64,000 nt of DNA from an uncultured Thermoleophilia bacterium. Its GTDB lineage: Bacteria > Actinomycetota > Thermoleophilia > UBA2241. A program made the translations under genes and the position numbers. Below are positions 10,124-38,067 of the stretch, piece by piece. The stretch covers positions 170,378 to 234,377 of the forward strand of contig CAVOWE010000018.1 in the NCBI GenBank assembly GCA_963700035.1. The letters are read 5' to 3'. Below the pieces are notes generated by a model that had not been told where the DNA came from, did no database searches, and was given only the letters and a program-made list of their open reading frames with translations. Each line of letters starts with the position of its first letter. The first letter of the stretch is position 1.

Positions 10124-12971
10124 GTGCTCGGGGCGTTCACCATCCGCAGCCGGGACAAGACCGAGGAGTTCCCGGTCACGCAGGCCATCGTGAACGTGGG
10201 CCGAGCCGCCGACAACGACCTGAGCCTGCCGTACGCCACCGTCTCTCTCCACCACGCGCGCGTCCTCGCCGACGCCTCGGGCTGTCGCGTCATGGACCTG
10301 GGCAGCTCCAACGGCACCCGCCTCAACGGCGTGGAGATCCCGGTCAAGGTGGCTCAGCCGCTTCGTGAGGGCGACCTCGTCGAGATCGGGCCGTTCCAGC
10401 TGCGTTTCCACGCCTCGCCGGGTCGCGTCGCTGCGCCCGGCCAGGCCGGGACTCCCGCCGCGGTGGCCGCGCAGGCGCGAGCGGGTCACACCGTCGTCCT
10501 GCCTCCGGACCTGCCCGCCCGTCTGATCGTGAGCACCCCCGAAGGGACCCGGGAGTTCCCCCTCAAGAAGGACTCCGTGACCCTGGGCCGCGAGTCGGAC
10601 AACGACATCGCCATCGAGGCCGAGGCGGTCTCCCGCCATCACGCCGTCATGAAGCGCCGCGGCCCCGCGTACCTCATCACGGACCTGGGGAGCACCAACG
10701 GCCTCAACGTGGCGGGGGAGCTGGTCAAGGAGAAGCTGCTGGCTCCGGGCGACTTCGTGTGCATCGGCCATAGCGTCACGCTGGAATACCGGGGGGCCGA
10801 GGCCCTCGCGGCGGACATGGCCGCGGCTGCTCTGGTCGGGGCGGGCGCCTACGGCCCGGGGCCCGCCGCCGGCGCGCCTGGCGAGCAGGCTCCGGCCGTC
10901 TTCGATATCCGCGACGGACACTCGCTCATTCTCGGCCGCGGCGACGAGACGAGCGTCCACATGGCCCACCCCCAGGTGTCCGCGCAGCACGCCGAGGTGC
11001 AGCGCCAGGCGGACCAGTACGTCATTCGCGACATGGGCAGCAGCGCCGGCACCTACGTCAACGGTCAGCTGGTGAGCCAGCAGCCTCTCCGCGAGAACGA
11101 CGTCATCCGCATCGGCCCGAACCGGCTGGTGTTCCAGGGCGGGCAGCTGCGGATGGTGAGCGAGGAAGGATGCCTGCGCCTGGACGCCTTCCACCTGAGC
11201 AAGGTCGTCGGCAAGGGTCAGCGCATCCTGCGGGACGTCTCGCTCTCCATCAAGCCGCAGGAGTTCGTCGCCGTGGTCGGAGGCAGTGGCGCCGGCAAGT
11301 CGACGCTCGTGAACGCCCTCTGCGGCTTCAAGCCGGCCACAGAGGGCGCCGTCCTGCTGAACGGCGTCGACCTCTACGGCAACTTCGACGCCTACCGCAA
11401 CGAGATGGGCTACGTCCCTCAGGACGACATCATCCATCTCGACCTCCCGGTGTCCAAGGCCCTGGACTACGCCGCCCGCCTGCGCATGCCCGCCGATACC
11501 AGCCGGTACGAGCGTGAGCAGCGTGTGCAGGAGGTCATCGACGAGCTGGACCTCAAGGCCTGCGCCGAGCGCACCGTCAGGCAGCTCAGCGGGGGGCAGC
11601 GCAAGCGCGTGTCCATCGGCGTCGAGCTGCTCACCCGGCCGAGCCTGTTCTTCCTCGACGAGGCGACCTCCGGGCTCGACCCGGCCACCGAATCGCAGAT
11701 GATGAAGCTCCTGCGCAAGCTGGCCGACCAGGGACGCACGATCATCCTCATCACGCACGCCACCAAGAACGTCATGGCGTGCGACAAGGTGGTCTTCCTG
11801 GTGCGTGGGGGTCAGCTCGCATTCTTCGGTCCTCCGGAGGACGCGCTCAAGTACTTCGGCGTCGAGGAGTTCGACGAGATCTACGAGAAGCTGGAGTCCG
11901 GGGCCTCGCCCGACGAATGGGCGCAGCGCTTCCTCGCCTCCCCCCAGCTTCAGGAGTACGTGGTGCGACCGCTGAGCGAGGTGGCCGGGGCGTCAGCGGG
12001 GCTCTACGGCGGCCGCCTCGACGGCGGCAACGGCGGCGGCGCCCGGGCGCGAGGCGGGCCGGCGGCTCCCGGAGCCCACATCAGGCGCTCCTCGTCCTGG
12101 AAGCAGTTCCTGATCCTCTCGGGCCGTTACCTCGACATCATCCGCCGCGACAAGAAGACGCTGGTGCTCCTTCTGGCCATCTCGCCGGTGCTCGGGGTAC
12201 TGGACTTCGTCACGTGGAAGCGCAATCTGTTCGACCCAGTGGACGGGAGCGCCACCAAGGTCGTGACGATGCTGTTCATGGCCTGCCTCATCGGCGTCCT
12301 GGTCGGCACCATCACCTCGGTGCGTGAGATCGTCAAGGAAGACCCCATCTACCGGCGCGAGCGCATGGTGTGCATCCAGGTGTTCCCCTACGTGGCCTCG
12401 AAGATCGCCGTGGGGTCGATCTTCGCCCTGTACAGCGCGCTCGTCCTCTTTCTGTTCAAGATCGGCGCCGTCGACTTCGGCCACCTGAGCGGCATCGGGT
12501 ATCTCGCAGCTCCTGATCACTTTCGTGCTCTGCACGTTCGCAGGGCTCATGTGGGGGCTTCTGGTATCGGCGGTCGCCCCCACCGAGGATCGCGCCATGC
12601 TGCTGGTGATCCTGGTGCTGGTGCCCCAGTTCATCTTCTCGGGGGGCATGATGCCCGTGTCCGATCTGGGGGTGGCGGGCAAGGTCTTCGGGACGCTGAC
12701 GTCCACGCGCTGGGGGCTGGGGGCGATGGCCACGGTCGCGGAGATCAAGACCGGTGCCGGCAAGGCGGCCGACATGTCGGACACCGTGCTGCCGGGGATC
12801 AAGGGGCTGGAGACTACCGCGGAGAAGGTGGCGCTGGTGCACTCGCTCGACAGCCAGTACGGAGCGATCTTCAACGTCAACATCGCCTTCTACTGGGCGA
12901 TGTCGCTCGTCCTGATCGCGGCACTGACGGTCATCATCTTCCTGCTGCAGAAGCGAAAGGACACGTTCTGA
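10124..12971 (+). CDS. Three FHA domains fused to an ABC transporter ATPase and an ABC-2 (ABCG/White-like) permease; apparent frameshift near 12500-12530
   Basis: Three FHA domains (MLGAFTIRS...GCRVMDLGSSNGTRLNG; LITDLGSTNGLNVAG; VIRDMGSSAGTYVNGQ). Walker A GGSGAGKST, signature LSGGQRKRVSIG, Walker B LFFLDEATSGLD. Permease TM helices. The C-terminal permease part continues in track ORF 12525..12971 (LVPQFIFSGGMMPV...FYWAMSLVLIAALTVIIFLLQ). Confidence 0.8.
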
Positions 12972-13254
12972 CCGGGCTGGCCGCGCCGGCGCCGTTCGGC
13001 CGCGGCCGCGGTGCCCCACGGCGCCGCCCGACACTTGTCTTTCCGCGCTGCTGCGAGAGAATGGGTGACAGGACGGCGCCTCGGGCAGCGACCAGAGGGG
13101 GGCAGGTGTCTGCTCATCCGGACAACGAACGCCGGGAGGCGATCGGGCCCCGCCCCGCTGCGCGGGTGGCTACGGGACGCGGCCGCGACGCCTTCATCCA
13201 TCTGTCGCCGAAGCGCGGCGAAAGCCCGGCGCCGAGAGGCGCGACGGGGGGGTC

Positions 13255-15634
13255 ATGGCAGACGAGCTGATCGGGCGCACGCTGGGGCGCTACAAGATCA
13301 CCGCCCTCGTGGGACGCGGTGGCATGGCCACGGTCTACCGGGCCACGCATCCCGGTCTGGAGCAGACCGTGGCCGTCAAGGTGCTGCACGCGCACATCGC
13401 GACCGACGCGGACCTGCTCGGCAGGTTCCAGCAGGAGGCGCGGGCGGTCGCGGCCCTTCGCCATCCCAACATCGTGCGCGTCGTGGACTTCGACTGCATC
13501 GACAACGTGTACTTCATGGTGATGGAGTACATCGACGGTCTCACCATGTCCGCGCACCTTCGCGATATGGCTGCCAAGGGGCGTCGCATGCCGGTCGCCG
13601 AAGTGCTGCGGGTCTTCGAGCCGCTCTGCTCCGCGGTGGACTACGCGCACGGGCAGGGCATGATCCACCGCGACATCAAACCGTCCAACGTCCTGCTCAC
13701 CGCGCAAGGCGAGCCGGTGCTCACCGACTACGGTATCGCCAAGATGATCGGGGTCACGCAGCATACGGCTGCCGGCACGGTCATGGGTTCTGCCTTCTAC
13801 ATGTCGCCGGAGCAGGCCCAGGGTGTCGCGGTGGACGGTCGCAGCGACATCTACTCTCTCGGCGTCATGCTGTTCGAGTCGCTGGCTGGGCAGGTGCCGT
13901 ACGAGGGCGACACCCTGGCGACCGTCCTCGTCAAGCACATCACGGCGCCGGTGCCGGCCGTGTGTCCGCTCAACGACGAGCTGCCGCCGCTGCTCGATGG
14001 CCTGATGCGCGTGGCCCTGGCCAAGGATCCGGACGAGCGCTTCCAGACGGGAAAGGCGCTGGCGGCCGCGTTGCGGCAGGGGCTCGCGCCGCTCGCCGCG
14101 CAGAGCAGCGCCGTGGCGGCGAATGCGACGCGGGTGGAGCGGCCGCCGAGCGGTGGCGCGGCGCCGCAGGGCTTCACGCGCGTGGAGACGCCGACGCCGG
14201 CGCCGGCGAAGCCGCCGCGCGAACGGGCGACCGCGCACGATGTGTTCATCAGCTACGCGGCGAGCGACAAGGCGGTTGCCGATGCTGTCTGCACGGCGCT
14301 CGAGAGCGAGAACATCCGCTGCTGGATCGCGCCGCGCGACGTACTGCCCGGCCAGAGCTTCGCGCGGGCTCTGGTCAACGCCATCCATGAGGCTCGCGTG
14401 TTCGTCCTCGTGTTCTCGTCGGCCACCAACAACTCCCAGCAAGTGGAACGCGAGCTCGACAGGGCCGCTTCCTCGCGACTGCCGATCCTCCCCCTGCGCG
14501 TGGAGGACGTGCTGCCGCGCGAGTCCATCGAGTACTACCTCGCCGGCCAGCACTGGCTCGACGCGCTCACGCCGCCGCTCGCCGACCATCTTGAACGCCT
14601 CACCGTGGCGATCGCGGCGCTGCTGCAGCGGTCGGCGCCGCCGCTCGCCGAAGGCCCGCCGGAAGCAACGGCTTCAGAGCCGGCCGTGTGGGCGACCGGC
14701 ACTCCAGCGGGAACAGCCTACGAGCCGGCGCCGGCGGCGACCACGTACGAGCCCGCGCCGGAGCCCGAAGCAGAGGCGCCGGTGGCTGAGGCCGAGCCCG
14801 CGCCGGAGCCCGAAGCAGAGGTGCCGGTGGCTGAGGCCGAGCCTGTGCCGGAGCCCGAAGCAGAGGCGCCCGTGGCTGAGGCTGAGCCCGCGCCGGCGGC
14901 GACCACGGATGAGCTCGCGCCGGCGACGCAGCTCAAACCGGAGGCGCCTGAGGCTGAAGCCGAGCCTGCGCTGGAGGTAGAGGCGCCCGAGCCCGTCGGC
15001 GCACCCGAGGCGGCAGTGGCGGTCGCGGGCCTGCAGGCGGCGACGACCTACGAGCCGGCGCCGGAGGCTGAGCCTGAGCCCGAGCCGGCAGCGGAGCCGC
15101 CAGAGCCCGAAGCCGAGCCTGAGGCCGTGCTCGAGCTCGAGCCTGAGGCGCTTGAGGCTGAGGCCGAGCCGCGAGCCGGAGGCAGAGGCTCCGGGGATCG
15201 TGCCCCTGCCGGAGCCTGAGGCCGTGATCGAGCCCGAGCCTGAGGCGGAGGCGCCTGAGGCCAGGGCCGAGCCCCCGTCGGACTTGACGACTCTCGAGCG
15301 GCCGGTGGAGGCGACCGAGCCGCAGGCCGCCACGACCTATGAGCCGGCGCCCGTGCCGGCAACGGGAACCTCCGAGCCGGCGTTCGCCGCCGAACCGACG
15401 GTGATGGCCGCGGCTGCGACGGCGGTGACACCCGGCGACGGTCCGACGCCCGTGGCTGCGACCGTGCTGGTGGCGGAGTCGCCGCCGGCCGGCGTGCCGG
15501 CCCTGGGCGAACGGGCCGGCGAAGCGTCAGAGCCTTCCCGGCAAGCGCTTCACAAGCCCACGCTGATCGCCGCGGCGGCTGTGGGAATCGCGTGGATCGT
15601 GATCCTCCTGGTCATCGACCAGGTGTTTCGCTAG
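13255..15634 (+). CDS. Hanks-type Ser/Thr protein kinase fused to a TIR domain, a Pro/Glu/Ala-rich repeat linker and a C-terminal transmembrane anchor; apparent frameshift in the repeat region near 15150-15220
   Basis: Kinase motifs LGRGGMATVYRA, VAVKVL, HRDIKPSNVLL, DYGIAK, SPEQ. TIR_2-like block HDVFISYAASDKAVADAVCTALESENIRCWIAPRDVLPGQSFARALVNAIHEARVFVLVFSSATNNSQQVERELD. Repeats EPAPEPEAEAPVAEA. The terminal helix PTLIAAAAVGIAWIVILLVIDQVFR is in track ORF 15152..15634. Confidence 0.8.
14749..14883 (+). repeat. Three tandem copies of a 45-bp coding repeat (gagcccgcgccggagcccgaagcagaggcgccggtggctgaggcc; encodes EPAPEPEAEAPVAEA), with degenerate copies further downstream
   Basis: Read directly from the sequence. 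Lies in the kinase linker. Confidence 0.8.
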
Positions 15635-17510: not shown

Positions 17511-18914
17511 CTAGACCCTCGCTGCGCTGGTCGTCGGACACCGGATCACCTCCTCGAGCTGGTCCAGCGTGAGCCGCCGGTTGATCTCACAGCGCGCGAC
17601 CACGGCATCATCGGCGCCCGGATAGAGCCGCTTGGACGGGCAGTCGCCTGCACAGTGGTACTTGGCGAAGCAGCGCGCGCAGCGCGGCGCGTCGTTGACG
17701 GTGAGATGGCGCAAGTGCGTCGACCCGCGCGGCATCGAAGGCGAACGACCGGTGCGTGGGGTCGTAGGAGCCGTAGATGAACGTGTCGGCGCGGGAGTCG
17801 TCGCGGCCGGTGACCTCGTAGCAGGCGGTGACGTCGCCTTCGGTGGTGATATTGAAGCTGGGCCTGCTCGCCTGACAGAACGAACAGGCCAGCGACGATT
17901 GGTGCGCGCCGGAGTAGGCCACCTCGACGCCGTGACGCGCGGCGTACTCGCGGCACTCGCGAAACGCCTCGACGAAGCGCTCCGCGTTCGGCGGCTGCAG
18001 GCCATTGCTGATGGAGCGGCCGCAGGCGAAGAGCGGTTCGAGGTGGATGGTGTTGAGCCGGTAGGTGTCGACGAGGTGTCGTACCGTCTCCAGGGCGTGA
18101 TCGAGCGCGTGGGACGTGCACGTGAGCCTGGTGCCCAACGTGCAGTCGCTCTCTGAGAGGCGCGCGAGCGTACGCTCGACGGCGGCCGACGAGGCGCCGC
18201 CGCCGGCCCGCGGCCGCAGGCGGTCCTGCACGGCCGCCGGGCCGTCGATGGACACCATCACCGACGTCATGCTCTCCGCCAGGTACTCCCGCATGGCGTC
18301 GTCCACGACGCCGTTCGTCGCGGTGCCGGTGGAGAGCTCGAGGGCGTGCTTTTCGCAGCGACGCCGGGCGTGAGCCACGCAGTTCTTCAGGGCTCTCGCC
18401 CGCGAGCGTCGGCTCACCGCCGCCGTGGAAGGTGACGGTCACCTCTGGCTGGCCGCTCGGCGACGGCGTTGTCGACGACGAAGTCGATGGCATCGAACGC
18501 GACCTGCTCGTCGAGGTAGCGCGGCTGCTCGCCACCGGACGCATAGCAGTAGACGCAGCGCAGGTTGCAGGCCGTGGTGAGGAACAGCGTGACGGCGGTG
18601 GGCCGGAGTGCGGCCGGCGGCGGGTCGTCGGTCACTGGTCGGTCGGAGGCGACAGCCGACGTCAGGGCCGGCGCTGCGCCGCTCGCCCGGCGTCTCCCGT
18701 GCTCCTTGCCGATGAGCTGAAGCTCCACGAGAAGATCCAGCACCTCGCGCGTGCCGGCGTTGCGAGTCACGGCGCGCTCGGCGGAGATGTCGGCGAGCAG
18801 GTTGAGGGCAGCGTCGTTCACCACCACGCTGGTCTGGAGCAGAGGCGCGTACACGAGGTGGTCGCGTCCGCGCGGCAGCGAGAAGACCTCGGTGGCCAGC
18901 CGGTACCTGGTCAC
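17511..18914 (-). CDS. Radical SAM enzyme with C-terminal SPASM domain (peptide-maturase type), broken by about three apparent frameshifts
   Basis: Spliced across track ORFs 18414..19094, 17546..18544, 17608..18417 and 17511..18005. CxxxCxxC motif TTACNLRCVYCYAS. GGEPTL motif VTFHGGGEPTLAGE. LSTGTATNGV...MVSIDGPAAVQDR. SPASM cysteines CSFCQAS...GDVTACYEV...CARCFAKYHCAGDCP. The GTG at 18914 overlaps the stop of the upstream PqqD-like gene. Confidence 0.75.
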
Positions 18915-19344
18915 GCCCGTTCTCCCGGGATACCGTTGCCCGACCCGTAGACGCCGAACACGAGACCTGCCCCCGAAAGGGTCTGGAGGCAGTCCCTGGT
19001 GTCGGCGCGCGCCGCGGCCGCCGGGATGCCGTACGCGGCGCTGAGGAGGGCGGCGAGGTCGTCCACAGTACGCCGCCCGTCGACGCCGCGCCATACGAAC
19101 GCCGCCGACCGGTTCAGGCGGAAGACCGGTCCGTGCGGGTCGACGGGCGTGGCGCGGAGTTCCACGTCACGCCCGCGGGCTGTCTCGACGAGGTTCTCGG
19201 CGCGTCGCGGCCGGGCCGTCCCAGCCGACGCGGCAGGGCCGTTCCGCGCGCTCCAGAGGCGACCTGTGGCGAGCGCCACGGCGCCGCCGGCGACGGCCAC
19301 GAGGAACGTCTTTCTGGTCGTCGCCCAGCTTGGCCCGTCCACGC
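18911..19344 (-). CDS. PqqD-like peptide-chaperone (RiPP recognition element) protein with an N-terminal hydrophobic segment
   Basis: C-terminal part of track ORF 18911..19777: VDPHGPVFRLNRSAAFVWRGVDGRRTVDDLAALLSAAYGIPAAAARADTRDCLQTLSGAGLV. This matches the PqqD-family pattern (LN.sA..iW...DG.rTv.ei...L...Y.v....a..D...fl..L...GL). The start is assigned to a GTG near 19332-19344. Confidence 0.5.
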
Positions 19345-21079: not shown

Positions 21080-21487
21080 ATGGAGATAAGGCCCCGCGGC
21101 GCCCTGCTCGACGAAATGGGTCTGTTCGCAGGGGCGGCCTGGACCACGGCGCTGCTGGCGCTCGGGCTGCTCGTGGTGAACCAGGTCGCGAACGTCGGCT
21201 GCTACACGCTCTTCGCGCTCTCGGGGCGCGCCGACCGCTGGCGGACGTTCATCATCCTGCAGATCCTGGGCGGGTTCTTCGGCCTGCTCACGCAACTGAC
21301 CTTCGCCGGCCTGGTGCGCTACGCGTCGCTGCCCTTCGCCAATGCCACCGGCATCGGCCTGGCGTTCGTCTCGGCGCAGGTGTTCAGCGCCGCCCTGATC
21401 CTGCGTGAGCCGTTCACCCTGCTGCAGTGGCTGGGCACGGCGTTCGTCTTCGCGGGCGTGCTGCTCATCGCGGCCGGGCAGCAGTGA
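21080..21487 (+). CDS. Small four-TM membrane protein (EamA/SMR-like small transporter family)
   Basis: 135 aa, four hydrophobic helices, LQWLGTAFVFAGVLLIAAGQQ C-terminus. Confidence 0.55.
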   Translation: MEIRPRGALLDEMGLFAGAAWTTALLALGLLVVNQVANVGCYTLFALSGRADRWRTFIILQILGGFFGLLTQLTFAGLVRYASLPFANATGIGLAFVSAQVFSAALILREPFTLLQWLGTAFVFAGVLLIAAGQQ

Positions 21488-21574: not shown

Positions 21575-21661
21575 TGCCGAAGTGGCGGAACCGGTAGACG
21601 CGCTGGACTCAAAACCCGGTGCCCGAGAGGGCGTGTGGGTTCAAATCCCACCTTCGGCACC
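21575..21661 (+). tRNA. tRNA-Leu (anticodon CAA), type II with long variable arm, CCA encoded
   Basis: GCCGAAGTGGCGGAACCGGTAGACGCGCTGGACTCAAAACCCGGTGCCCGAGAGGGCGTGTGGGTTCAAATCCCACCTTCGGCACCA. The acceptor stem GCCGAAG/CTTCGGC, the D-loop GAACCGGTAG and the anticodon loop CTCAAAA are near-identical in layout to E. coli tRNA-Leu(CAA). Confidence 0.85.
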
Positions 21662-21831
21662 ATCTCTCGCCGCGCCTCCGGATGCCGCCCTCGTGGGCAG
21701 GCACGACGCGGTCGCACCGCGCAGAGAAACCGCCGGCCCGGCATCTGGTACCATTACTGTCCTGAACACGACTGCGTGCGCGGTGGTCTGCCCGTCGTCC
21801 GGGCAGCCGCACGCGGGGAGGAGCTTGGCGC

Positions 21832-22515
21832 ATGACGGTGCGGCTCTTGGGACTCAACTGCAGCCCGCGCGACAAAAGCAACAGCAGCATCATGCTCGAA
21901 ACGTCCTTCGAGAAGCTCGACGCCACCTACCCCGGCGAGGCCGAGCACGAGATCGTCCACCTGCGCGACCTCCACCTCGAGCCCTGCAAGGCCTGCAACG
22001 TGTGCGGAAAGACGAAGGACGGCAGGTTCATCCCCTGCGTGCGCGTCGACGAGGACGACGTGCAGATGGTCCTCGACAAGATGGTGGCCGCCGACGGCCT
22101 CCTCGTGGCGACGCCCGTCTACTTCGGGCTGCCCACCGACCTCTTCTCCAAGTTCATCATGCGCACGCGGCCGCTGCGCCATCAGGACTTCAAGCTGGCC
22201 AACCGGCCGGTGGGCGTGATGGCCACGGCCGGCCGTCGTTCCGGCGGCGCCGAGACGGCCATCATCGCCACCTGGCTGCCGTTCGTGCGCAACGGCTGCC
22301 TCGTGGTCGGCAACGGCGACGGTACCTGTCAGTTCGGCGCCTACGGCTGGGCCGGCGCGCGCGGGCACATCCTCAGCGACGAGTGGGGTCTGGAGCAGGC
22401 CTGCCAGACCACCGAGCGCGTGTTCACGCTGGCCAAGGTGTTCAAGGCGGGCGTCGCGGCCACGGGCTTCGAGAACCCGATGAAGTTCTCGTACGGCGCG
22501 GGGACGCGGCCCTGA
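21832..22515 (+). CDS. NADPH-dependent FMN reductase / iron-sulfur flavoprotein-like (flavodoxin fold)
   Basis: MTVRLLGLNCSPRDKSNSS...LLVATPVYFGLPTDLFSKFIMRT...GVMATAGRRSGGAETA. Confidence 0.75.
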   Translation: MTVRLLGLNCSPRDKSNSSIMLETSFEKLDATYPGEAEHEIVHLRDLHLEPCKACNVCGKTKDGRFIPCVRVDEDDVQMVLDKMVAADGLLVATPVYFGLPTDLFSKFIMRTRPLRHQDFKLANRPVGVMATAGRRSGGAETAIIATWLPFVRNGCLVVGNGDGTCQFGAYGWAGARGHILSDEWGLEQACQTTERVFTLAKVFKAGVAATGFENPMKFSYGAGTRP

Positions 22516-22559
22516 GCGATGGCGACGGCCCGCCGCCCCAACGAAGTGAAGGACGCAGC

Positions 22560-22808
22560 ATGACCGACGCCGAGACCATCCTCGAGTTCATCCGCGACGA
22601 GGCCGACCTCGAAGAGGACGAGGTGAGCGCGGACACGTCGCTGTTCCGCGACCAGCTGCTCGACTCCATGAACCTGACGGCGCTCATCGCCTTTCTCGAG
22701 GAGACCTTCACCATCAAGGTGAAGCCCATGGACATCGTGTTCGAGAATCTCGACACGGTGAACCACATGCTGGCTTACGTGGCGCGCAAGAGGGCGGGCG
22801 ATGCCTGA
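22560..22808 (+). CDS. Acyl/peptidyl carrier protein (DltC-like)
   Basis: 83 aa; MTDAETILEFIRDEADLEEDEVSADTSLFRDQLLDSMNLTALIAFLEE with the phosphopantetheine-site DSM motif. Good SD GAAGGA upstream of the ATG at 22560. Confidence 0.8.
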   Translation: MTDAETILEFIRDEADLEEDEVSADTSLFRDQLLDSMNLTALIAFLEETFTIKVKPMDIVFENLDTVNHMLAYVARKRAGDA

Positions 22809-23022
22809 GGCCGGCTCCGGGCAGACCGACTCACGCGACGCCGTCCCGCCGCAGGACGCCGGCGAGCGGCCGCGACACGGTGGCTCTTCTACGGGCTCGG
22901 CCTGAGCCTGCAGACGCTGCTCTGGTTCCTCCTCTTCCTGGCGATCACCGTCGCCGTGCTGGTCGGGGGCCAGCTCACCGAGTTCCGCTACGTCGGCTTC
23001 TGACGGCAGCCGCCGGCTTCGC

Positions 23023-24594
23023 ATGACACCTCTCGACCTCATGACCGACGCCGTGGCGCGCCTGCGGCTGCTCGCCGGCGAGCAGCCGCAGGCGCTGCTG
23101 CTGCGCACGCGGGAGCGCTCGTATACATATGCCGCCGTACTGCGTCGCGCCGCGGCGGTCGCCGCCGCCCTGCAGGCGGCCGGCGGCGGCCGTGGCCGGC
23201 GCGTCGCCCTGTATCTGGAGGAGTACGACCAGTTCTTCGTCTGCATGCTGGGCGCCTGGCTGGCCGGCGCCGTCATCGTGCCGCTCAACACCAGCTTGCC
23301 GGCCGCCGACGCACGCTGGCTGATCGACAAGGCGGCGCCGGACGTGCTGGTGCTGCCCGCCGCCGACACGTGTCCCGCCGATGGCCCGCGCCGCCTTGTG
23401 GTGACCGCCGATGCGGAGGGTCTGGTGAGCGGTCTGATGGACGCCGCGGAGACCGCGGACGCCGGCGGCGTAGCCGGCCCGGCGGGTCCGCCGGTAGCCA
23501 CGGCCGAGGTCGACCCCGGCGCCTTCGAGCCGGTGCACGAAGACGAACCGGCGATGATCATGTTCACCTCGGGCACCACCGGCCTGCCCAAGGGCGTCTG
23601 CCAGACGCTGCGCGCCGTCTCGAGCAACGCCGGCCACGTGGCGCTCACCCTGGGCCTTCAGGCCGACGACCGGATCTTCATCAACACGCCGCCGTACTTC
23701 ACCAGCGGCATCTGCCACTTCCTGACGCTGCTGGCGAACGGCGGCGGCGTGGCCGGCCAATTGGGCTTCTTCTTCGGGGCCGGCCTCCTCGACGAGATGG
23801 AGGCGCAAGGCTGCACGGGCTTCGGTGGCGCCCCGGCGCACCTCGTGCGCGTGGTCGAGCCGCTCGACGAGCCGCGAGAGCACGCTCTTCGATTCTGGGT
23901 GAGCAGCGGGGACCATCTGCCGCTGCCGGTCATCACCAAGTTCCGCCGCGTGCTGCCCGGCGTCGGGTTGTTCAACATGTACGGCCTCACCGAGGTGAGC
24001 GGCCGGCTCTGCATCCTGCCGCCGGCCGAGCTCGACGTGCGCCTCGGCTCCGTGGGCCGGCCCATCGGCGACATGCGCGTCGCGGCGCGCCGCGACGACG
24101 GCGCCGAGGCGGCGGCCGGCGAGACCGGGGAACTCTACGTCACCGGCTCCCTGCTCATGCAGGGGTATCTGGACGAGCCCGAGACCACCGCCCGGACGCT
24201 CACCGCGCACGGTCTGCGCACGGGGGACTTCGGTCGCGTCGATGCCGAGGGCTTCGTCTGGATCGAGGGCCGCAAGGACGACATCATCAAACGCGGCGGC
24301 GAGAAGGTGAGCATCATCCACGTGCAGCAGGCACTGCAGGGGCTGGGCCGCTTCGCCGACGTGGCGGTGCTGGCGGCCCCCGACGACATCCTCGGGCACG
24401 TGCCGGTGGCCTTCGTGGTGCCGCACGATGCGGAGGGCTTCAAAGCCTCGCGGCTCTTGCGCGAGCTCCGTGGCGTGCTGCCGTCCGCCTCGCTGCCCAG
24501 TCGCGTCCTCGCTGTGGACGTCATCCCGCGCACCGGCTCGGGCAAGGCCATCCGCGCCGAGCTGCAGGCCCTGCTCGCAGAGGAGCTCGGGTGA
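23023..24594 (+). CDS. AMP-dependent synthetase/ligase (acyl/aminoacyl adenylating enzyme, DltA/FAAL-like)
   Basis: MIMFTSGTTGLPKGV, YGLTEVSG, GDFGRVDAEGFVWIEGRKDDIIKRGGEKV. Confidence 0.85.
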   Translation: MTPLDLMTDAVARLRLLAGEQPQALLLRTRERSYTYAAVLRRAAAVAAALQAAGGGRGRRVALYLEEYDQFFVCMLGAWLAGAVIVPLNTSLPAADARWLIDKAAPDVLVLPAADTCPADGPRRLVVTADAEGLVSGLMDAAETADAGGVAGPAGPPVATAEVDPGAFEPVHEDEPAMIMFTSGTTGLPKGVCQTLRAVSSNAGHVALTLGLQADDRIFINTPPYFTSGICHFLTLLANGGGVAGQLGFFFGAGLLDEMEAQGCTGFGGAPAHLVRVVEPLDEPREHALRFWVSSGDHLPLPVITKFRRVLPGVGLFNMYGLTEVSGRLCILPPAELDVRLGSVGRPIGDMRVAARRDDGAEAAAGETGELYVTGSLLMQGYLDEPETTARTLTAHGLRTGDFGRVDAEGFVWIEGRKDDIIKRGGEKVSIIHVQQALQGLGRFADVAVLAAPDDILGHVPVAFVVPHDAEGFKASRLLRELRGVLPSASLPSRVLAVDVIPRTGSGKAIRAELQALLAEELG

Positions 24595-24652
24595 AGGGCT
24601 TTGAGGCCGGCTTCGCAACCGGAACCCGCTGGTACTGGTCGCCGCCGCCGCG

Positions 24653-25663
24653 TTGCTGGCGCTGGTCCTCGTAGCAACGGAGAGCTTCTTCACCACCGGC
24701 GCCTGGTCACGCGTGCCTCTCAAGTTCTGGATGCGCAAGGCGAGCGACGACTACACGTACGTGTCGTGGACGGTGGGGACGAACATGCAGCATCCCCCGA
24801 AGACGCCCGCCGTCTACCTCCTCGGAGGCTCCACGGCGCGAGAGGCCATCACCAGCGGCGACTCGCTGGCCGCCGAGATCGAGGAGCTCGGCGGCCCCAA
24901 GGTGGCCGCCTGGGACCTGGCCTCGATGAACCAGAATTTCGCCCAGAGCCTGGCCATCGCCGACAACGTGCCCAACAGCCCGGCATGGATCCTCATCGGC
25001 CTGAACATGGGCCGCTTCACGCCCGATCGCGGCGCCAGCATGAAGCAGGTCGTCGGTCGCGAGCTCCTGCTCAAGAGCGCTTTTCTGCAGCAGTATGTGG
25101 CCCGGGAGTACGGCAAGTACGAACACAGCCGCACGATCCTGCCGGGCATCTTCTCCTACATGGTGAGCTGGGCGCGCGAACATCGCGTTGAGCTGCAGAA
25201 AGGCTCCCTCCGGACGCGGGAGTACGGCCAGCATCGCTACAACCTCAAGCACATCCACACCGTGGCGCAGAAGGAGGAGATGGTCGCCGTCTGGAACGAG
25301 CGGCGCTACCCCGCGTTCCGGCGCAATCTGGGGTTCAACCTCGACATGCTCGAGCAGCTCCTGATCCGCTGTCAGGAGCGTGGCCTGCACCCGGTCCTCG
25401 TGGAGCTGCCGAACAACCGCGACCTGATCGGGAAGCGCTTCGACTACGCCGAGGCTCAGTACCGGGCGCCGTCGCAGGCGTTGGCGGCCGAGTACGACGT
25501 GCCGTACCTCGACTTCAACCATGAGCTCGATCTGAAGAATGCCGACTTCCACGATCTCTCTCATCTGGTGGAGCCCGGCCGGGTCATCTGGCAGCGGCGG
25601 CTGGCTCAGGAGCTGGTGCGCCTGATGGGCGCCGACGGGAAAGGCGCGGGCACGCAGCCATGA
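24653..25663 (+). CDS. DltD/AlgX-like SGNH-fold protein (putative periplasmic O-acyl/alanyl transferase partner)
   Basis: Paralogous to 26939..28117 (shared YLLGGST/YLFGGSG, ADN[VL]P, NL..LE.LL..[CA].ERG, Y.VPYL, D..F.DL.HL..GR..WQ). The start is uncertain; it could begin at the GTG at 24591 overlapping the ligase stop if one indel is allowed. Confidence 0.55.
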   Translation: MLALVLVATESFFTTGAWSRVPLKFWMRKASDDYTYVSWTVGTNMQHPPKTPAVYLLGGSTAREAITSGDSLAAEIEELGGPKVAAWDLASMNQNFAQSLAIADNVPNSPAWILIGLNMGRFTPDRGASMKQVVGRELLLKSAFLQQYVAREYGKYEHSRTILPGIFSYMVSWAREHRVELQKGSLRTREYGQHRYNLKHIHTVAQKEEMVAVWNERRYPAFRRNLGFNLDMLEQLLIRCQERGLHPVLVELPNNRDLIGKRFDYAEAQYRAPSQALAAEYDVPYLDFNHELDLKNADFHDLSHLVEPGRVIWQRRLAQELVRLMGADGKGAGTQP

Positions 25664-26907
25664 GGATCTACTTCACGCTGTACCTGATTCCGGTGGTCAT
25701 CGCCGCGCTGCTGGTCTTCTGGCTGCTCTTGCGCAAGGAGCGCCTCAGGCTGATCTTCCTCGTCGTGCTCTCGGTGGCCGTCCTCGCCATCCTGCACCCG
25801 GCGTTCGCGGCCATCGCTGTGGGGCTCGTGGTCGTGACCCATCAGCTCGTCGACCTCAAGCGGCGCAAGAAGCTGAGCGGCGGCCGCGTCGTGCTCATCA
25901 TCGTCGCCATGGCCGTGATCACCCTCGGCGTCGGCAAGTACGGCCACCGCGGGGCGCTCGCGATCTGGGGCGAGGACGACTGGATCGTCTCGCATCTGCT
26001 GATGCCGCTGGGCATCAGCTACTTCGCGTTCCGCCTGCTGCAGTACGTCTTCGACTGCCTGCGCGGCGTGATCGAGGAGAACTCGCTGCTGCGGCTCGCC
26101 GCGTTCGTGATGTTCATCCCCACGTTCCCGGCGGGACCGCTCGAGACCTACCAGGGCTTCTACGAGAAGCGCAGCTACTCGTTCGACCGGCAGCTGTTCT
26201 ACAAGGGCCTGCGGCGCATCGCCGTGGGCTACTTCAAGAAGGTCTTCGTCGTCGACTTCGTGTTCGCCCTCTTCTTCACGAAGATCATCTCGACGGTCGG
26301 CAGCCCCGACTTCGAGGCCTCACAGCTCGGCCCCTGGTGGCCGCTCGCCTACTGCATCCTCGTCTTCGTGCGCGCCTACTTCGACCTGTCCGCCTACACC
26401 GACCTGGCCATCGGCTTCTCGGCGCTGTTCGGGTTCCGCATCATGGAGAACTTCCACCTGCCCTTCCTGGCGAAGAACCTCGGCGATTTCTGGCGCCGCT
26501 GGCACATCTCGCTGTCGACCTGGTGCCGCAACAACGTGTACTTCCCCGTGTTCGGCCTCACGCGCAAAGCCTGGCTCGGCTTGTACGCCAGCATGCTCAC
26601 CATGGGGTTGTGGCACTACGTCGACCTCAACTGGACCGCCTGGGGCCTGTACCACGGCACCGGGCTCGTGGTGGTCTCGCGCTGGGAGCGCTGGAAGAAG
26701 AAGCGCAGGAAGGCTCGCAAGAAGGCCGGCCTGCCGCCGGCGGCGCCCTACGAGAAGTACGTGCGCTGGCTCGGCTATCCGGCCACCTTCCTGTACGTGG
26801 CGCTGGGCTACGCGTTCGTCTCCACGCGTTCGCTGGAGCACGCGCTGACCATCATCTATCTCGCCTTCCGCCTGCCCCTGGCGTGGCTCACGGGCCATGT
26901 TCTGTGA
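25660..26907 (+). CDS. MBOAT-family membrane-bound O-acyltransferase (DltB/AlgI-like)
   Basis: Multi-TM protein with FWRRWHISLSTWCRNNVYFPV and LWHYVDLNWTAWGLYHG (MBOAT histidine motif). Confidence 0.85.
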   Translation: MRIYFTLYLIPVVIAALLVFWLLLRKERLRLIFLVVLSVAVLAILHPAFAAIAVGLVVVTHQLVDLKRRKKLSGGRVVLIIVAMAVITLGVGKYGHRGALAIWGEDDWIVSHLLMPLGISYFAFRLLQYVFDCLRGVIEENSLLRLAAFVMFIPTFPAGPLETYQGFYEKRSYSFDRQLFYKGLRRIAVGYFKKVFVVDFVFALFFTKIISTVGSPDFEASQLGPWWPLAYCILVFVRAYFDLSAYTDLAIGFSALFGFRIMENFHLPFLAKNLGDFWRRWHISLSTWCRNNVYFPVFGLTRKAWLGLYASMLTMGLWHYVDLNWTAWGLYHGTGLVVVSRWERWKKKRRKARKKAGLPPAAPYEKYVRWLGYPATFLYVALGYAFVSTRSLEHALTIIYLAFRLPLAWLTGHVL

Positions 26908-26938
26908 GAGCATGGGCGCGGCGGGGTAGGAGAGAGAC

Positions 26939-28117
26939 GTGCTGAGAAGATCGCCACAGCGCGGCACGCGGTGGAGCTCGTTGGGCCGCGGCTTTCGCCA
27001 GCGCAACCCACTGGTGCTGGTGGCGGCCGCTCTCCTCGCGGGGGGCGCGCTCCTCGTCTTCCAGAGCGCGCTCGTCAACGGCGGCCTCACGCTGATCTCG
27101 GAGGGCCGCCTTCTGCGCATCACCAACGACGACTACCTGCACGTCGCCTATCGCGTGGCGGAGCTCAAGAAGGAGCCGTCTCAGCAACGCACGATCTACC
27201 TCTTCGGCGGCTCGGGGACCATGGAGTGCTTCGTCGACCAGCAGTCGCTCGGCGCTGAGGTGTCTGCAGCGTCCGGCGAGGACGTGCGCGTCGTCAGCCT
27301 GGCCGCCCACCGGCAGAGCATGGCCATGTCGCTGGCGCTCGCCGACAACCTGCCGGACGGGCCCGCGCTTCTGGCCATCGGCCTCGCGCCCATCCGCATG
27401 ACGACCGACCCCAAGGACGACGCGCGTCTGCTCTCCGGCCGGCCGCTGCTCGTGCGCAGCGCGCGGCTCGAGTCTGCTGGCCGAGCGCTTCTACGGGCAG
27501 AGCCCGGCGGCTCTCGGGGTGATCCCGGGCTTCTTCGACTACCTCGGCTCGTACATGCAAGCGCGCGTGACGGAGAGGCCGGGCGCCCGGTCATCGGCGA
27601 GGCGCTGACCTACGCCGAGCACTACTATCCGCCGGGCGCCAAGGGGCACCTGCCCCTCGGCAAGCGGCGCAACGTGCTGCAGGTGCTCGAGAAGGACGTA
27701 AGGCTGTACCGCCTCTACTCGGCGTACAACCTCGCGATGCTCGAAGAGATTCTGAGACTGGCGCGCGAGCGTGGCTTCGCGGTGGCGCTGTACGACCAGC
27801 CGCTCAACGCCTCGGCGGCGGGGCCCGACTGGGCGGGCGTCGTGCCGGCCTACCGGGCGGCGTGTCGCCGACTCGCCCGCCAGTACGGCGTGGCCTACCT
27901 CCACATCGAGCGGGGCGTGGAGCTCGAGGACGCCGACTTCGCCGACCTGTTCCACCTTCTGGCGCCGGGGCGCGCCAAGTGGCAGCCTGAGATGGCGCGC
28001 CAGCTGGCCGCGGCGCTGCGGTCTCCGTCCGGGCCGGTGGCCCAGCGCTCCGGCGCGCAGTCGCCGGAGGCCCCACGGCTGTATCGCGGATTGACCTGCG
28101 CAGCCTGGTCAACGTGA
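26939..28117 (+). CDS. Second DltD/AlgX-like protein (paralog of 24653..25663); compensating double frameshift near 27470-27590
   Basis: Signal/TM LVLVAAALLAGGALLVF. In the alternative frame the segment SLLAERFYGQSPAALGVIPGFFDYLGSYMQARVTER aligns with the paralog segment YVAREYGKYEHSRTILPGIFSYMVSWAREHR, whereas the track frame reads low-complexity text. Confidence 0.55.
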   Translation: MLRRSPQRGTRWSSLGRGFRQRNPLVLVAAALLAGGALLVFQSALVNGGLTLISEGRLLRITNDDYLHVAYRVAELKKEPSQQRTIYLFGGSGTMECFVDQQSLGAEVSAASGEDVRVVSLAAHRQSMAMSLALADNLPDGPALLAIGLAPIRMTTDPKDDARLLSGRPLLVRSARLESAGRALLRAEPGGSRGDPGLLRLPRLVHASARDGEAGRPVIGEALTYAEHYYPPGAKGHLPLGKRRNVLQVLEKDVRLYRLYSAYNLAMLEEILRLARERGFAVALYDQPLNASAAGPDWAGVVPAYRAACRRLARQYGVAYLHIERGVELEDADFADLFHLLAPGRAKWQPEMARQLAAALRSPSGPVAQRSGAQSPEAPRLYRGLTCAAWST

Positions 28118-28192
28118 GGGCCTCCTCTCGATGAGCGAGGGGACCGCCTCGGACGACGGGGACCGGGCCCACCGCATGCCGGCGGGCTCCCG

Positions 28193-29122
28193 GTGGGCAG
28201 TGGCGAGGACGGCGTCACCAGGCGCCAGCTGCTGATCGGCGGCGGTGCGGCCGCCGCGCTCCTGGCTGTCGCCGGCCTCGTGGGCGGGCGCTCGTGGACC
28301 GCACGCAGCTACTGGTGGCGGCTGACCGGCGCCTACGGAGAGCCCGGCGCGTACCCGCCGCCGGGCGACGTCGTCTACCAGTACGCCTCCATGCCGTCGA
28401 GTCATGTGAGTGGCGGCGTGGAGTACGGCGTTGCCACGCCGGGGAAGATCGCGCGAATGAGGCAGGGTCCCGGTTGGAAGGCGCCCGTCTGCTACTGCCT
28501 GCCCGGCCGCGGGCGCGGGCCGCGCGAGGTGCTCCAGGGCGACCTGCGCCTCGGCGACTTCGCCGCGCAGGCGTTTGCGGAGCGCGGCGCACAGCCCTTC
28601 GTGCTGGTCGCGGTGCGCGGCGGCGACACCTACTGGCACCGGCGCGCCTCGGAGGAGGATGCCATGGCCATGCTCCTCGACGAGTTCATCCCCTACTGCC
28701 GCCGCGAGCTGCGGCTCGGCGGCCCGGCCGGCGAGGCGATCATGGGCTGGTCGATGGGCGGCTACGGCGCTCTGCTCGCCGCGGAGACGCGGCCGCAGGC
28801 CTTTCGCGGCGTGTGCGCCGTGAGCGCCGCGCTCTGGCGCTCCTACGACGACGGCGTGGGCGATGCCTTCGACAGTGCGGCCGACTATGCCGCCCACGAC
28901 GTCTACGCCGGCGCCGGCCGGCTTGGCGGTCTGCCGGTGCGGGTAGACTGCGGCCGACAGGACCCGTTCTACGAGGCCGACGTGGCCTTCGTGGAGGCTC
29001 TGCCGCAGAAGCCGCAGGGTGGCTTCGAGCCCGGCGGCCACAACGACGCATACTGGCGGCGCGTGGCGCCGCCGGAGATGGACTTCATCGCCGCGGCGCT
29101 TGCCGGCGCCCGCGCCGGCTGA
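28193..29122 (+). CDS. Secreted (Tat-like signal) esterase of the alpha/beta hydrolase 'putative esterase' family
   Basis: RRQLLIGGGAAAALLAVAG twin-arginine-like N-terminus; GWSMGGYGAL nucleophile elbow; GGHNDAYW. Confidence 0.7.
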   Translation: MGSGEDGVTRRQLLIGGGAAAALLAVAGLVGGRSWTARSYWWRLTGAYGEPGAYPPPGDVVYQYASMPSSHVSGGVEYGVATPGKIARMRQGPGWKAPVCYCLPGRGRGPREVLQGDLRLGDFAAQAFAERGAQPFVLVAVRGGDTYWHRRASEEDAMAMLLDEFIPYCRRELRLGGPAGEAIMGWSMGGYGALLAAETRPQAFRGVCAVSAALWRSYDDGVGDAFDSAADYAAHDVYAGAGRLGGLPVRVDCGRQDPFYEADVAFVEALPQKPQGGFEPGGHNDAYWRRVAPPEMDFIAAALAGARAG

Positions 29123-29137
29123 GCAGGAGGTCGCGTT

Positions 29138-29578
29138 ATGTCACGGACCGTCAAGACCTTTCTGTGGATCGTCGTGATCATGATCGTCGGGTTCGGCCTC
29201 ATCCAGCTTGTGCCCTACGGGCGCGACCACACGAACCCGCCGGTCACGAGCGAGCCGGCATGGGACAGCCCTCAGACGAAGGCTCTGGCGCAGAAGGCCT
29301 GTTTCGACTGTCACAGCAACGAAACGGTCTGGCCCTGGTACTCGAACATCGCTCCCGCCTCCTGGCTCATCTACCGCGATGTCGCCGAGGGACGTCAGAA
29401 CGTGAACTTCTCCGAGTGGCCGGCGACCGGCGGCGGGGGGCTCATGGCGGCGGCTGCTCAGAAGGTCGCCGAGGGCGAGATGCCGCCGCTGCAATACAAG
29501 CTCGCGCACAGCGGGGCGCGCCTCTCGGACGCCGAGAAGCAGCAGCTGATCGCCGGCTTCAAGGCGTCGGCCAAGTAG
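29138..29578 (+). CDS. Haem-binding-domain (Haem_bd) membrane-anchored protein
   Basis: N-terminal TM; CFDCHSNETVWPWYSNIAPASWLIYRDVAEGRQNVNFSEW...GEMPPLQYKLAHSGARLSDAEKQQL. Confidence 0.7.
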   Translation: MSRTVKTFLWIVVIMIVGFGLIQLVPYGRDHTNPPVTSEPAWDSPQTKALAQKACFDCHSNETVWPWYSNIAPASWLIYRDVAEGRQNVNFSEWPATGGGGLMAAAAQKVAEGEMPPLQYKLAHSGARLSDAEKQQLIAGFKASAK

Positions 29579-29629
29579 ACTCGGGCGGCACGCCGGCCGC
29601 GCCCCGAGGCTGCGCGCGCAGTGCGGCGC

Positions 29630-30950: not shown

Positions 30951-32514
30951 GTGGTCGTCGTCGCGGTGCTGACGTGGCGCGCGGTGGCTTGCGGCTGCGG
31001 CGGGGCCGGCGTCACGGCGGTGACCTACGGCTCCGTGCCGCCGGCCCCGCTGCCGTCCCTCGAGGGCGACGGCGTCAAGGTGGGCACGTTCCTCGGCAAC
31101 TACTCACGGCGGTTCTACGGACTGGGCCCCGTGCCCGAGCGCCTCGACGTACTCTGGAAGGCGCGCCTCGGCAGCGGCTGGACCTCGGGCAAGTACGACA
31201 CGGACCCACCGGCGAAGTGGGCCGGCAGTGGCTGGACCGGCATGCCCAGCATCGTCGTCGACGGCGGCAAGGCCTACGTCGTGGTCGGGGGCTACGACCA
31301 CCGCCTGCGCCGCCTGGACGCGGTGACCGGTGAGGTCGTCTGGGAGTACAAGTACGACGACATCATCAAGAGCAGCCCGTCGGTGTTCCAGAACCCCGAG
31401 CCCACCGGCGCCGACGACAGGTTCATCGTCTGCGCCGGCTCGCGCCGCGGCTACCCGCTCAAGCTCGCCGAACCCGGCGTCGCGCCGTACCGGGCCGTCA
31501 CGTTCGGCAGCGGCAAGGAGCTCTGGCGCCTGCCGGTGCCGCAGACCGCCTGCTACAGCCGCGACTGCGACGGGAGCGGCTTCTTCCTCGACGGCCGCCA
31601 GTACATCGGCGTGGAGAGCGGGTGGATGTATGCGCTCGATCCGCTGGAGACCGTGGACTGGAACGGGCAGAAGCGGCCCAAGATCGTCGCCCAGCGGCAG
31701 CTGCTCGGCGACGACCGGGCGGCGACCCACGACGGCAACCTCGTGCTCGAGTCGTCGGCGTCGGTCCTCGGCAGGCGGATCTACATCTCCTCCGGGGCGG
31801 GTCACGTGTACGGCATGCGGCGCGGCGACCTCGCCGATCGAATGGGACTTCTTCACCGGCTCCGACCTCGACGGGACCGCGGTGCCCACGCGTCGCGGCA
31901 AGCTCCTGGTGCCGGTCGAGAAGCAGTACATCAAGGGCCGTGGCGGCGTGTTGTGCCTCGACCCGTCGCGTCCGCCCGAGAAGTCCGTCGACTGGTTCTT
32001 CCCCACCGGCGACCGCAAGGTCGGGGAGTGGAAGGGCGGCCTGATCGGCTCCTGCGCGGTCAACGACGAGTACAACCGCGACGGCCGCCTGCCGGCGCTG
32101 ACGGCGTTCAACGCCATCGACGGCTACCTGCACGTGGTCTCGCAGGACACCGTCAGCGGCCAGCTGGTCAAAGGTCCCAACCTGGAACCAGGTCTGCAGA
32201 CGCCGGTGGAGATCGCGCGACTGTGGAACGGCGGCGCGATCTCCACGCCCCTGCTCTTCGCCGAGACGCTCATCGCCGCGTCGTACGACCAGCGCGTGCA
32301 CCTGTACCGCATCACGTACACACCCTCGGAAGAGGGCCTCTCGGGGGCGCTGCCCAGCGCCCGCGGCGACGGCAGGTACTGGCGCGTGAGTTTCAACGAG
32401 ACCGACCAGTTCTTCGCCGGCGGAGGCTTTGAGAGCACGCCGACGCTGTGGGACGGGCGCGTGTACGTGGGTTGTCGCGACGGCTGGTTCTACTGCCTCG
32501 GCGACAAGCCGTGA
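30951..32514 (+). CDS. PQQ-like beta-propeller repeat (BamB-like) lipoprotein; apparent frameshift near 31830-31850
   Basis: N-terminal part in track ORF 30951..32432 (AVACGCGG lipobox-like; GKAYVVVGGYDHRLRRLDAVTGEVVWEY). C-terminal part in track ORF 31330..32514 (DGRVYVGCRDGWFYCLGDKP). Confidence 0.65.
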
Positions 32515-38031: not shown

Positions 38032-38067
38032 TCCGAGTATTGCACACTGGCCGCGTGACCAGACGCC

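Follow-up and report, generated by a model that had tools for sequence, protein, structure and literature searches.

We describe here a cluster of seven genes in a 64-kb stretch of DNA from an uncultured Thermoleophilia bacterium (the window: 64,000 nucleotides of contig CAVOWE010000018.1, assembly GCA_963700035.1, 70% GC). The cluster begins 170 bp past the 3' end of tRNA-Leu(CAA) and encodes, all on the strand of the tRNA, a flavoprotein, a small carrier protein, a membrane microprotein, an AMP-forming ligase, an SGNH protein (D1), an MBOAT protein and a second SGNH protein (D2). Written with the role letters of the Dlt system, the gene order is flavoprotein-C-X-A-D-B-D, and a single co-oriented block encodes the whole set of five Dlt roles (X, A, B, C, D). 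Start and stop codons overlap at three places (carrier protein to microprotein, ligase to D1, and D1 to MBOAT), and the G+C content at third codon positions (GC3) is as high as in real genes. A previous sequence-only reading of the stretch had placed the tRNA and six of these genes where we find them, but had overlooked the seventh, the microprotein. Since this microprotein completes the five Dlt roles, the Dlt-like reading is strengthened. We consider it likely that the cluster is a Dlt-type acyl relay of the Thermoleophilia, vertically inherited, that acylates one or more extracytoplasmic polymers of the envelope.

Features of the cluster, with positions counted from the first letter of the window
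Feature	Position	Strand	Evidence	Remark
tRNA-Leu(CAA)	21576-21662	+	ARAGORN; Rfam tRNA, 55 bits	Steady left neighbour of the operon
Putative promoter element, extended -10-like, TCTGGTACCAT	21744-21754	+	Alignment of 14 spacers	
FMN_red-family flavoprotein	21832-22515	+	PF03358, 6e-21	Usually the operon's first gene
Carrier protein, 83 aa, DltC role	22557-22808	+	PF00550, 2e-9, 37.8 bits (cut-off 20.8)	
DltX-like membrane microprotein, ~67 aa	22801-23003	+	Conserved open reading frame, C-terminal FxYxxF	
AMP-forming (ANL) ligase, DltA position	23023-24594	+	AMP-binding, 2e-66, and AMP-binding_C	
D1, membrane-anchored SGNH protein, DltD role	24592-25663	+		GTG start; annotated open reading frame 24653-25663, 336 aa
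DltB-like MBOAT, 415 aa	25660-26907	+	PF03062, 4e-17	
D2, second membrane-anchored SGNH paralogue	26939-28117	+	Similarity to D1	

The microprotein gene lies in the 214-bp gap between the carrier-protein and ligase genes, a gap whose length is conserved among relatives. Read in the frame of the carrier protein, this gap ends in ...TEFRYVGF*, and the small open reading frame (ORF) is intact at the same place in all ~50 related loci, with an ATG that overlaps the stop codon of the carrier protein. Its product is built from a variable, acidic and proline-rich N-terminus, an RxRW motif, one hydrophobic, putatively transmembrane (TM), helix and the C-terminus LTEFRYVGF*, this nonamer being identical in 51/51 copies. 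That the gene is under coding selection in this frame follows from the variable sites in its last 41 codons, which number 24/15/37 by codon position among 48 distinct DNA versions. In one more distant relative (L058) the ORF has been called as a 73-aa gene. In a large protein collection, however, all 351 clusters of the microprotein are unnamed and without a Pfam domain, so that it has systematically been left unannotated.

The terminal FRYVGF fits FxYxxF, an experimentally defined acyl-shuttle motif; the Tyr in it bears D-alanine in the case of DltX and acetate in that of PatA (PMC12148441). DltX of Bacillus thuringiensis has a cytoplasmic N-terminus, one TM helix and an external C-terminus ending in FIYNEF (PMC5541007), and the predicted architecture of the microprotein matches it in all three respects (N-terminus in, one TM helix, FxYxxF end). 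The resemblance to DltX is one of architecture, motif and gene context, without detectable homology.

The MBOAT protein has the features that define DltB, namely the catalytic His, a length of ~400 aa and no C-terminal shuttle extension. Only DltB matches it in the PDB (6BUG/8JEM, 1e-33), and the NCBIfam model TIGR04091 LTA_dltB covers it from model positions 7 to 377 of 380 with 172 bits (cut-off 375). In alignment with Streptococcus thermophilus DltB, its GLWH falls on the catalytic His336 and its RWH on His289. As the protein is of DltB length, it has no room for the two extra shuttle-bearing helices of PatA/AlgI, and no FxYxxF is conserved at its C-terminus. The possibility that an IIYLAF near the C-terminus is a fused shuttle motif was dismissed, since this string is not conserved.

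D1 and D2 share 31% identity (E 3e-38), which bears out the earlier claim of a second DltD-like paralogue. In an alignment of 26 sequences that includes D2, GGS81 and D322-x-x-H325 are invariant and correspond to the SGNH nucleophile and the acid/base pair; an N-terminal GFRxRNPLVLVAAALL motif is also common to both proteins. D1 starts at the GTG at 24592, and its orthologues are 357 aa long. Comparison of the D1 sequence with the PDB returned noise only, and a match needed a structure model. The AlphaFold2 (AF2) model built on the 26-sequence alignment has a pLDDT of 92.8 and an N-terminal helix at residues 13-35. Its top PDB matches in Foldseek are DltD 6O93 (8e-6), 3BMA, 6PFX and 7DXM (to 1e-3), followed by generic SGNH hydrolases and esterases. 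D1 is thus modelled as a membrane-anchored SGNH protein nearest to DltD, a membership at the level of the fold and not of orthology. The former description of this protein as 'DltD/AlgX-like' holds for DltD, the best structural match, but not for AlgX specifically, as AlgX and AlgJ fall outside the top Foldseek matches. For D2 there is only a sub-threshold match to a GDSL-like lipase (18.4 bits, cut-off 32.9).

Proteins of this kind are numerous and nameless. D1 has hundreds of unnamed homologues, clustering of its superfamily at 50% gives 2050 representatives, and a functional name is lacking from all 10 D1 clusters that were checked. Stand-alone D1 relatives of 310-332 aa, all unnamed, also occur away from MBOAT genes and gave no functional clue. 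Shorter D1 relatives were found at L059 8001-8933 and 15259-16787, one of them lying ~6 kb upstream of a further flavoprotein, carrier protein and microprotein start.

Loci differ in how many SGNH paralogues they have, with 0 to 3 before the MBOAT gene and 0 or 1 after it, and a D2-type gene follows the MBOAT gene in most loci. L063 and L004, two loci that share more than 96% identity with the window, have an extra SGNH paralogue between the ligase gene and D1, which is absent from the window. When the junction regions were compared (window 24560-24700, L063 6430-7530, L004 3300-4560), the first ~45 nt of D1 in the window resembled the single-copy junction of L052 and not D1 of L063. This pattern suggests that recombination at the conserved N-terminal motif, GFRNRNPLVLV, may lie behind the D1 junction of the window.

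The carrier protein was described before as an 83-aa acyl carrier protein (ACP) with a DSM site, and this is what we find: it matches PF00550, and its phosphopantetheine serine motif, LLDSMNL, is conserved in 49/49 orthologues. DltC chains in the PDB rank below the ACPs of fatty acid synthases, and the sequence is about equally distant from both. Judged by its sequence, the carrier protein is generic.

The ligase departs from its Dlt counterpart. Against the PDB it ranks FadD5 (7e-50) and FadD13 (4e-44) far above DltA (1.6e-26). Its best NCBIfam matches are PRK06187 (264 bits) and TIGR03098 (243 bits, cut-off 592), both below cut-off; no DltA model is found among the best 25, and the ligase stays below every FadD family cut-off. 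In DltA and in the adenylation domains of nonribosomal peptide synthetases (NRPS), Asp197 binds the substrate by its alpha-amino group. When Bacillus subtilis DltA (3E7W) was aligned with the ligase of the window and its orthologues, the FDLS motif of DltA was replaced by FTSG, so that Asp197 is a Thr, invariant in the orthologues. Moreover, Cys269 is replaced by Ser, and the pocket pair after A5, Val301/Ala302, by Gly/Arg within YGLTEVSGRLC. The A8 motif, GRKDDIIKRGGEKV, is of the acyl-CoA-synthetase type and not of the NRPS type. By FTSG, the Ser at Cys269, the A8 type and the rank of FadD5, the ligase stands apart from DltA. It also differs from FadD5 and FadD13, in which the His of PLFH corresponds to Phe (PPYFTSG) in the ligase and SPV or CGG to SGR. 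The FTSG and SGR pocket residues are matched by none of the characterised ANL enzymes that we aligned, and the substrate prediction stops at excluding amino-acid recognition of the DltA type.

As the ligase lacks the amino-binding Asp and resembles FadD5 and FadD13, D-alanine is probably not the acyl group. The enzyme is unlikely to recognise an alpha-amino acid in the manner of DltA, and the residues of the pocket indicate that the acyl group is most likely neither D-alanine nor another alpha-amino acid. A fatty, hydroxy, oxo or other organic acid is more likely. The alternative is genuine D-alanylation or aminoacylation, in which a FadD-like ligase would have converged on an amino acid and cationic esters would be placed on a teichoic-acid-like polymer as in dltXABCD. 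This would fit the presence of DltX-, DltB-, DltC- and DltD-like parts, the weak matches of the carrier protein to DltC models, and the likeness between its LLDSM and LLDSF, the corresponding motif of B. subtilis DltC. Nevertheless, we regard it as unlikely, as the substitutions at Asp197, Cys269 and the post-A5 pocket, the type of the A8 motif and the low rank of DltA all speak against it. The sequence-only reading had invoked the logic of teichoic-acid D-alanylation; its core, carrier-dependent acylation of a surface polymer, is supported by the microprotein, the catalytic His of the MBOAT and the DltD-like fold, while the D-alanylation part probably does not hold.

That reading had also taken a grouping with fatty-acyl ligases unrelated to carrier-protein loading as a result that would speak against it. 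The ligase does group with the fatty-acyl-CoA type and not with DltA, but its conserved and translationally coupled position beside the carrier protein still favours loading of the carrier. Another acyl-activation module, positionally unrelated, is found elsewhere in the window, at 5276-8218, where a LuxE-like gene (acyl-protein synthetase, a weak match) adjoins a LuxC-like gene (acyl-CoA reductase, 1e-26).

The 'flavin reductase' that had been reported at the start of the cluster is indeed a flavoprotein of the FMN_red family. Iron-sulfur flavoproteins (Isf) are recognised by a flavodoxin-like FMN_red fold together with a compact Cys motif for a 4Fe-4S cluster. A four-Cys motif, CxxCxxC(x10-11)C, is present in 45/46 orthologues of the flavoprotein. 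The nearest solved relative is FLR, a flavone ene-reductase of gut bacteria (7D38, E 1.8e-10, residues 4-114), and the motif region is common to both. The gene is absent from two loci (L037 and L050) that keep the rest of the cluster, and we therefore take the flavoprotein as a frequent companion and not as part of the core. That it tailors the acyl group is speculation.

Upstream of the flavoprotein gene, 14 otherwise divergent spacers between the tRNA and this gene could be aligned, and in the sequence TCTGGTAnnAT the core T..GGTA..AT is invariant across them. This extended -10-like element lies ~80 nt before the ATG of the flavoprotein and is, from its sequence, the probable promoter of the operon; its position suggests that the flavoprotein is the first gene. 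A simple scan for sigma-70 promoters and terminators gave nothing informative and did not pick up the element. On its 3' side follow a 5' untranslated region of ~80 nt with a semi-conserved CCCG...CGGG and then the ribosome-binding site GAGAGGAG. An Rfam scan of 20.5-29.5 kb found the tRNA only, and no riboswitch or leader.

To place the cluster among its relatives, we surveyed one genome per species, which gave 57 loci, nearly all from metagenome-assembled genomes (MAGs) of uncultured Thermoleophilia/Actinomycetota, with D1 identities of 45-83%. The order flavoprotein, carrier protein, microprotein, ligase, SGNH(n), MBOAT, SGNH recurs in ~90 independent loci and is followed by an M42 peptidase and other syntenic genes, a recurrence far beyond chance. 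In none of these ~90 loci are the carrier/ligase half and the MBOAT/SGNH half apart. This bears on a further alternative, in which two unrelated modules would merely be neighbours: the flavoprotein, carrier protein and ligase would form a cytoplasmic small-molecule or acyl-activation pathway, and the MBOAT and SGNH proteins would O-acylate a polymer from acyl-CoA. A generic carrier protein, a ligase of the acyl-CoA-synthetase type and a flavoprotein related most closely, among solved structures, to a small-molecule ene-reductase are all compatible with such a division. Yet the MBOAT lacks the C-terminal shuttle extension that is carried by acyl-CoA-dependent bacterial MBOATs (PMC12148441), and the shuttle is instead a separate gene between carrier protein and ligase, overlapping the stop codon of the former. 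The ligase stop overlaps the D1 start and the two halves never separate, and we therefore judge this division very unlikely.

How the relay may work can be proposed from homology and gene context, which together suggest each transfer step, the membrane topology, the acyl group and the acceptor. The cytoplasmic ANL ligase would adenylate a carboxylic acid and thioesterify it onto the phosphopantetheine arm of the carrier protein. The loaded carrier would then dock at the cytoplasmic face of the DltB-like MBOAT, whose conserved His would transfer the acyl group to the Tyr of FRYVGF at the extracytoplasmic C-terminus of the microprotein. From this Tyr, the membrane-anchored SGNH paralogues (Ser81/Asp322/His325) would take the acyl group and attach it by an ester bond to hydroxyls on one or more envelope polymers. 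That loci differ in the number of these paralogues suggests different acceptors. The chances seem evenly balanced that the cluster is a complete DltX-type relay that attaches a non-amino-acid acyl group to the envelope, with FadD-like activation, possible tailoring by an Fe-S flavoprotein and an expandable set of SGNH proteins that serves different acceptors.

Several observations weigh against this relay. Profile models of DltA, DltC, DltD and DltX do not reach their cut-offs with any protein of the cluster, and those of DltX and DltD give no match at all: neither the Pfam nor the NCBIfam DltX model finds the microprotein, and D1 has no match in Pfam or NCBIfam, including the Pfam DltD model. 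The two DltC equivalog models score 32 and 19.7 bits on the carrier protein, against cut-offs of 68 and 52, and, as noted above, no DltA model is among the best NCBIfam matches of the ligase. The Foldseek TM-scores between the D1 model and DltD are only ~0.4. The ligase could form acyl-CoA instead of loading the carrier protein. In Pfam scans of 46 ORFs, the window has no polymer-synthesis genes, those of teichoic acid included, that would identify the acceptor. Finally, two of the genes are frameshifted in the window: relative to all orthologues in DNA alignments, the microprotein gene has a 1-nt deletion at 22874/22875, and D1 has a 1-nt deletion near 24610/24611, which leaves the 336-aa ORF from 24653.

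If the two frameshifts were genuine, the copy in the window would be a decaying pseudo-operon and its relay inactive. Besides the deletions themselves, this idea could draw on the place of the second one, which falls in the recombinant-looking D1 junction. Unrelated genes of the window whose orthologues are intact are frameshifted as well, however. A PQQ-like beta-propeller gene at 30951-32511 (+) changes frame at ~31835, and at 17520-19022 (-) a CxxxCxxC gene (radical-SAM-like, with no Pfam match) is broken into four frame segments. Many related long-read MAG loci also give split matches, and the remainder of each affected cluster gene is intact with a GC3 of ~0.9. Because unrelated genes and long-read MAG loci are frameshifted in a similar way, assembly indels are the simpler explanation. 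The assembly behind the window seems prone to indels, both frameshifts are most likely assembly indels, and the chance that this copy of the relay is decaying seems slim.

The Dlt-type relay proposed here also appears to belong to the chromosome. As the cluster lies at the 3' end of a tRNA, the sequence-only reading had raised the possibility that it arrived as an island, and had suggested a search for a direct repeat downstream of 28.1 kb and for an integrase, a comparison of GC and codon usage with the flanks, and a look at the same tRNA in related genomes. None of these lines supports the idea. The 3' end of the tRNA (19 or 28 nt, allowing up to 3 mismatches) has no second copy within the 64 kb, and no family of such repeats was seen; integrase, recombinase, transposase and phage genes are absent from the Pfam scans of the 46 ORFs. 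The GC3 of the cluster (0.87-0.97) and its Leu codon usage match those of the flanking genes. We also considered a tie between tRNA-Leu(CAA) and rare TTG codons but dropped it, as TTG makes up 11/253 Leu codons of the cluster, like in other genes.

Among relatives, 39/44 loci with enough flank have tRNA-Leu(CAA) on the same strand, 31-498 bp upstream of the first gene of the cluster, and two more have it 2.6-3.2 kb upstream. The loci with the tRNA adjacent span D1 identities of 45-98%. As a guard against ascertainment bias, the flanking M42 peptidase was used as a second anchor in metagenome contigs, and the cluster is present in ~33 of the 36 informative loci found in this way. MBOAT identities follow M42 peptidase identities with r=0.92 (n=53); for two flank genes against each other, r is 0.84. 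The only clear absence is in a close relative (L069, M42 peptidase 91% identical in DNA), which has lost the cluster together with the esterase and haem-binding genes that follow it in the window: 665 bp (1049-1713) replace window 21663-29623, and the last base of the tRNA is exactly where homology stops. This locus could be taken for an ancestral empty attachment site. We rejected this, since the 665 bp contain a remnant of an IS630-like transposase (E 3.5e-6) and the upstream gene is damaged, from which the absence is a deletion and a secondary loss.

The start of the cluster 170 bp after the tRNA, the missing 8-kb segment of L069 and the different SGNH copy numbers of near-identical strains are what remains in favour of integration at tRNA-Leu(CAA), and given the conservation at the tRNA without tRNA-associated repeats, the very outcome that the sequence-only reading had set against its own proposal, a genomic island is scarcely credible. 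The tRNA is a conserved left neighbour and not an integration scar, and the cluster is a vertically inherited operon that is conserved in the chromosomes of uncultured actinobacteria from soil and sediment.

Since the ligase lacks the marks of DltA and none of the Dlt profile models attains its cut-off, the cluster does not count as a dlt operon by membership; by analogy, it would nonetheless work like one. With DltXABCD, as known from the Firmicutes and from the dlt operons of Dickeya/Pectobacterium, it shares the five-part logic of a ligase, a carrier protein whose serine lies in DSx, an MBOAT of the DltB type, a separate single-TM FxYxxF microprotein and an N-terminally anchored SGNH transferase, for which DltD is the best structural match. 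It differs in its FadD-like ligase with Asp197 changed to Thr and an A8 of the acyl-CoA-synthetase type, in a carrier protein, SGNH proteins and microprotein that reach no Dlt profile model, and in having one to four SGNH paralogues per locus compared with one DltD. The order flavoprotein-C-X-A-D-B-D, the long and variable N-terminus of the microprotein and the high-GC actinobacterial host also set it apart.

Other systems share parts of this logic. In PatA/PatB, AlgI/AlgJ/AlgX and WssH/WssI, an MBOAT, an SGNH partner and an FxYxxF Tyr shuttle likewise acylate an extracytoplasmic polymer. In such acyl-CoA-dependent systems the shuttle is fused to the MBOAT's C-terminus on two additional TM helices, and a ligase, a carrier protein and a microprotein are lacking (PMC12148441). 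The MBOAT of the cluster is of DltB length and has a separate shuttle gene, a carrier protein and a ligase beside it, which places the cluster outside the fused-shuttle group of PatA/PatB and AlgI/AlgJ/AlgX. FadD5 and FadD13 of Mycobacterium tuberculosis are the best sequence matches of the ligase and resemble it in the style of motifs A3, A5, A8 and A10, but differ in the residues of PPYFTSG and SGR; the stand-alone carrier protein as genomic partner is a further difference. The second-best NCBIfam match of the ligase, TIGR03098, is an exosortase-A-associated ligase, and in loci of this family a small carrier protein likewise accompanies the ligase close to exopolysaccharide genes. The score is far under the cut-off, exosortase/PEP-CTERM genes are absent here, and those loci have no relay of MBOAT, DltX and SGNH proteins. 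AlmEFG, which modifies lipid A with glycine in Vibrio cholerae, shows that a DltA-like ligase and a carrier protein can serve the envelope outside the Firmicutes. Its transferase AlmG, however, is an LpxM-like lipid A acyltransferase and not an MBOAT, and the system has neither a microprotein nor an SGNH step. To our knowledge, no characterised bacterial MBOAT system other than Dlt employs both a carrier protein and a separate Tyr-shuttle microprotein. Searches of the literature on Actinobacteria or Streptomyces for systems of the Dlt kind returned nothing relevant.

Between D2 and the M42 peptidase, the window has a putative esterase gene at 28193-29122 (PF00756), with a twin-arginine-like N-terminus (TRRQLLIGG), and a gene for a Haem_bd domain protein at 29138-29578. 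Both are present in only some related loci, so they are accessory neighbours outside the relay. Upstream of the tRNA, a small EamA-like protein with four TM helices is encoded at 21080-21487. In L058, on a 1.1-Mb Thermoleophilia contig, the tRNA is preceded (positions 1-5000) by a PMT/PMT_2 glycosyltransferase and two LPG_synthase_TM proteins, which are envelope-related.

Farther away in the window, 13255-15219 encodes a fusion of a Ser/Thr protein kinase with a TIR domain (Pkinase 6e-44, TIR_2 2e-21), and the gene just upstream (10124-13270) combines three FHA domains, the ATPase of an ABC transporter and an ABC-2 membrane domain in one protein. Direct repeats at 37482-38824, 70-80% identical and with a constant spacing of 806-808 nt, point to tandem paralogous genes on the - strand, and a xylose-isomerase-like TIM barrel gene (AP_endonuc_2) lies at 38068-38937.

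A carrier protein and a separate shuttle microprotein are what set Dlt apart from all other bacterial MBOAT-SGNH systems (PMC12148441). The cluster described here has both, together with a ligase that is not DltA, and it is found in an abundant uncultured class of actinobacteria. If our reading is true, the carrier-protein/DltX branch of MBOAT-SGNH acylation would extend past D-alanylation, contrary to the current statement (PMC12148441). Should the relay work as proposed, the chemistry carried by a Dlt-type relay would be wider than D-alanine transfer, the variable SGNH paralogues would offer a natural test of how acceptors are chosen, and the cluster would point to an unknown ester modification of the Thermoleophilia envelope.

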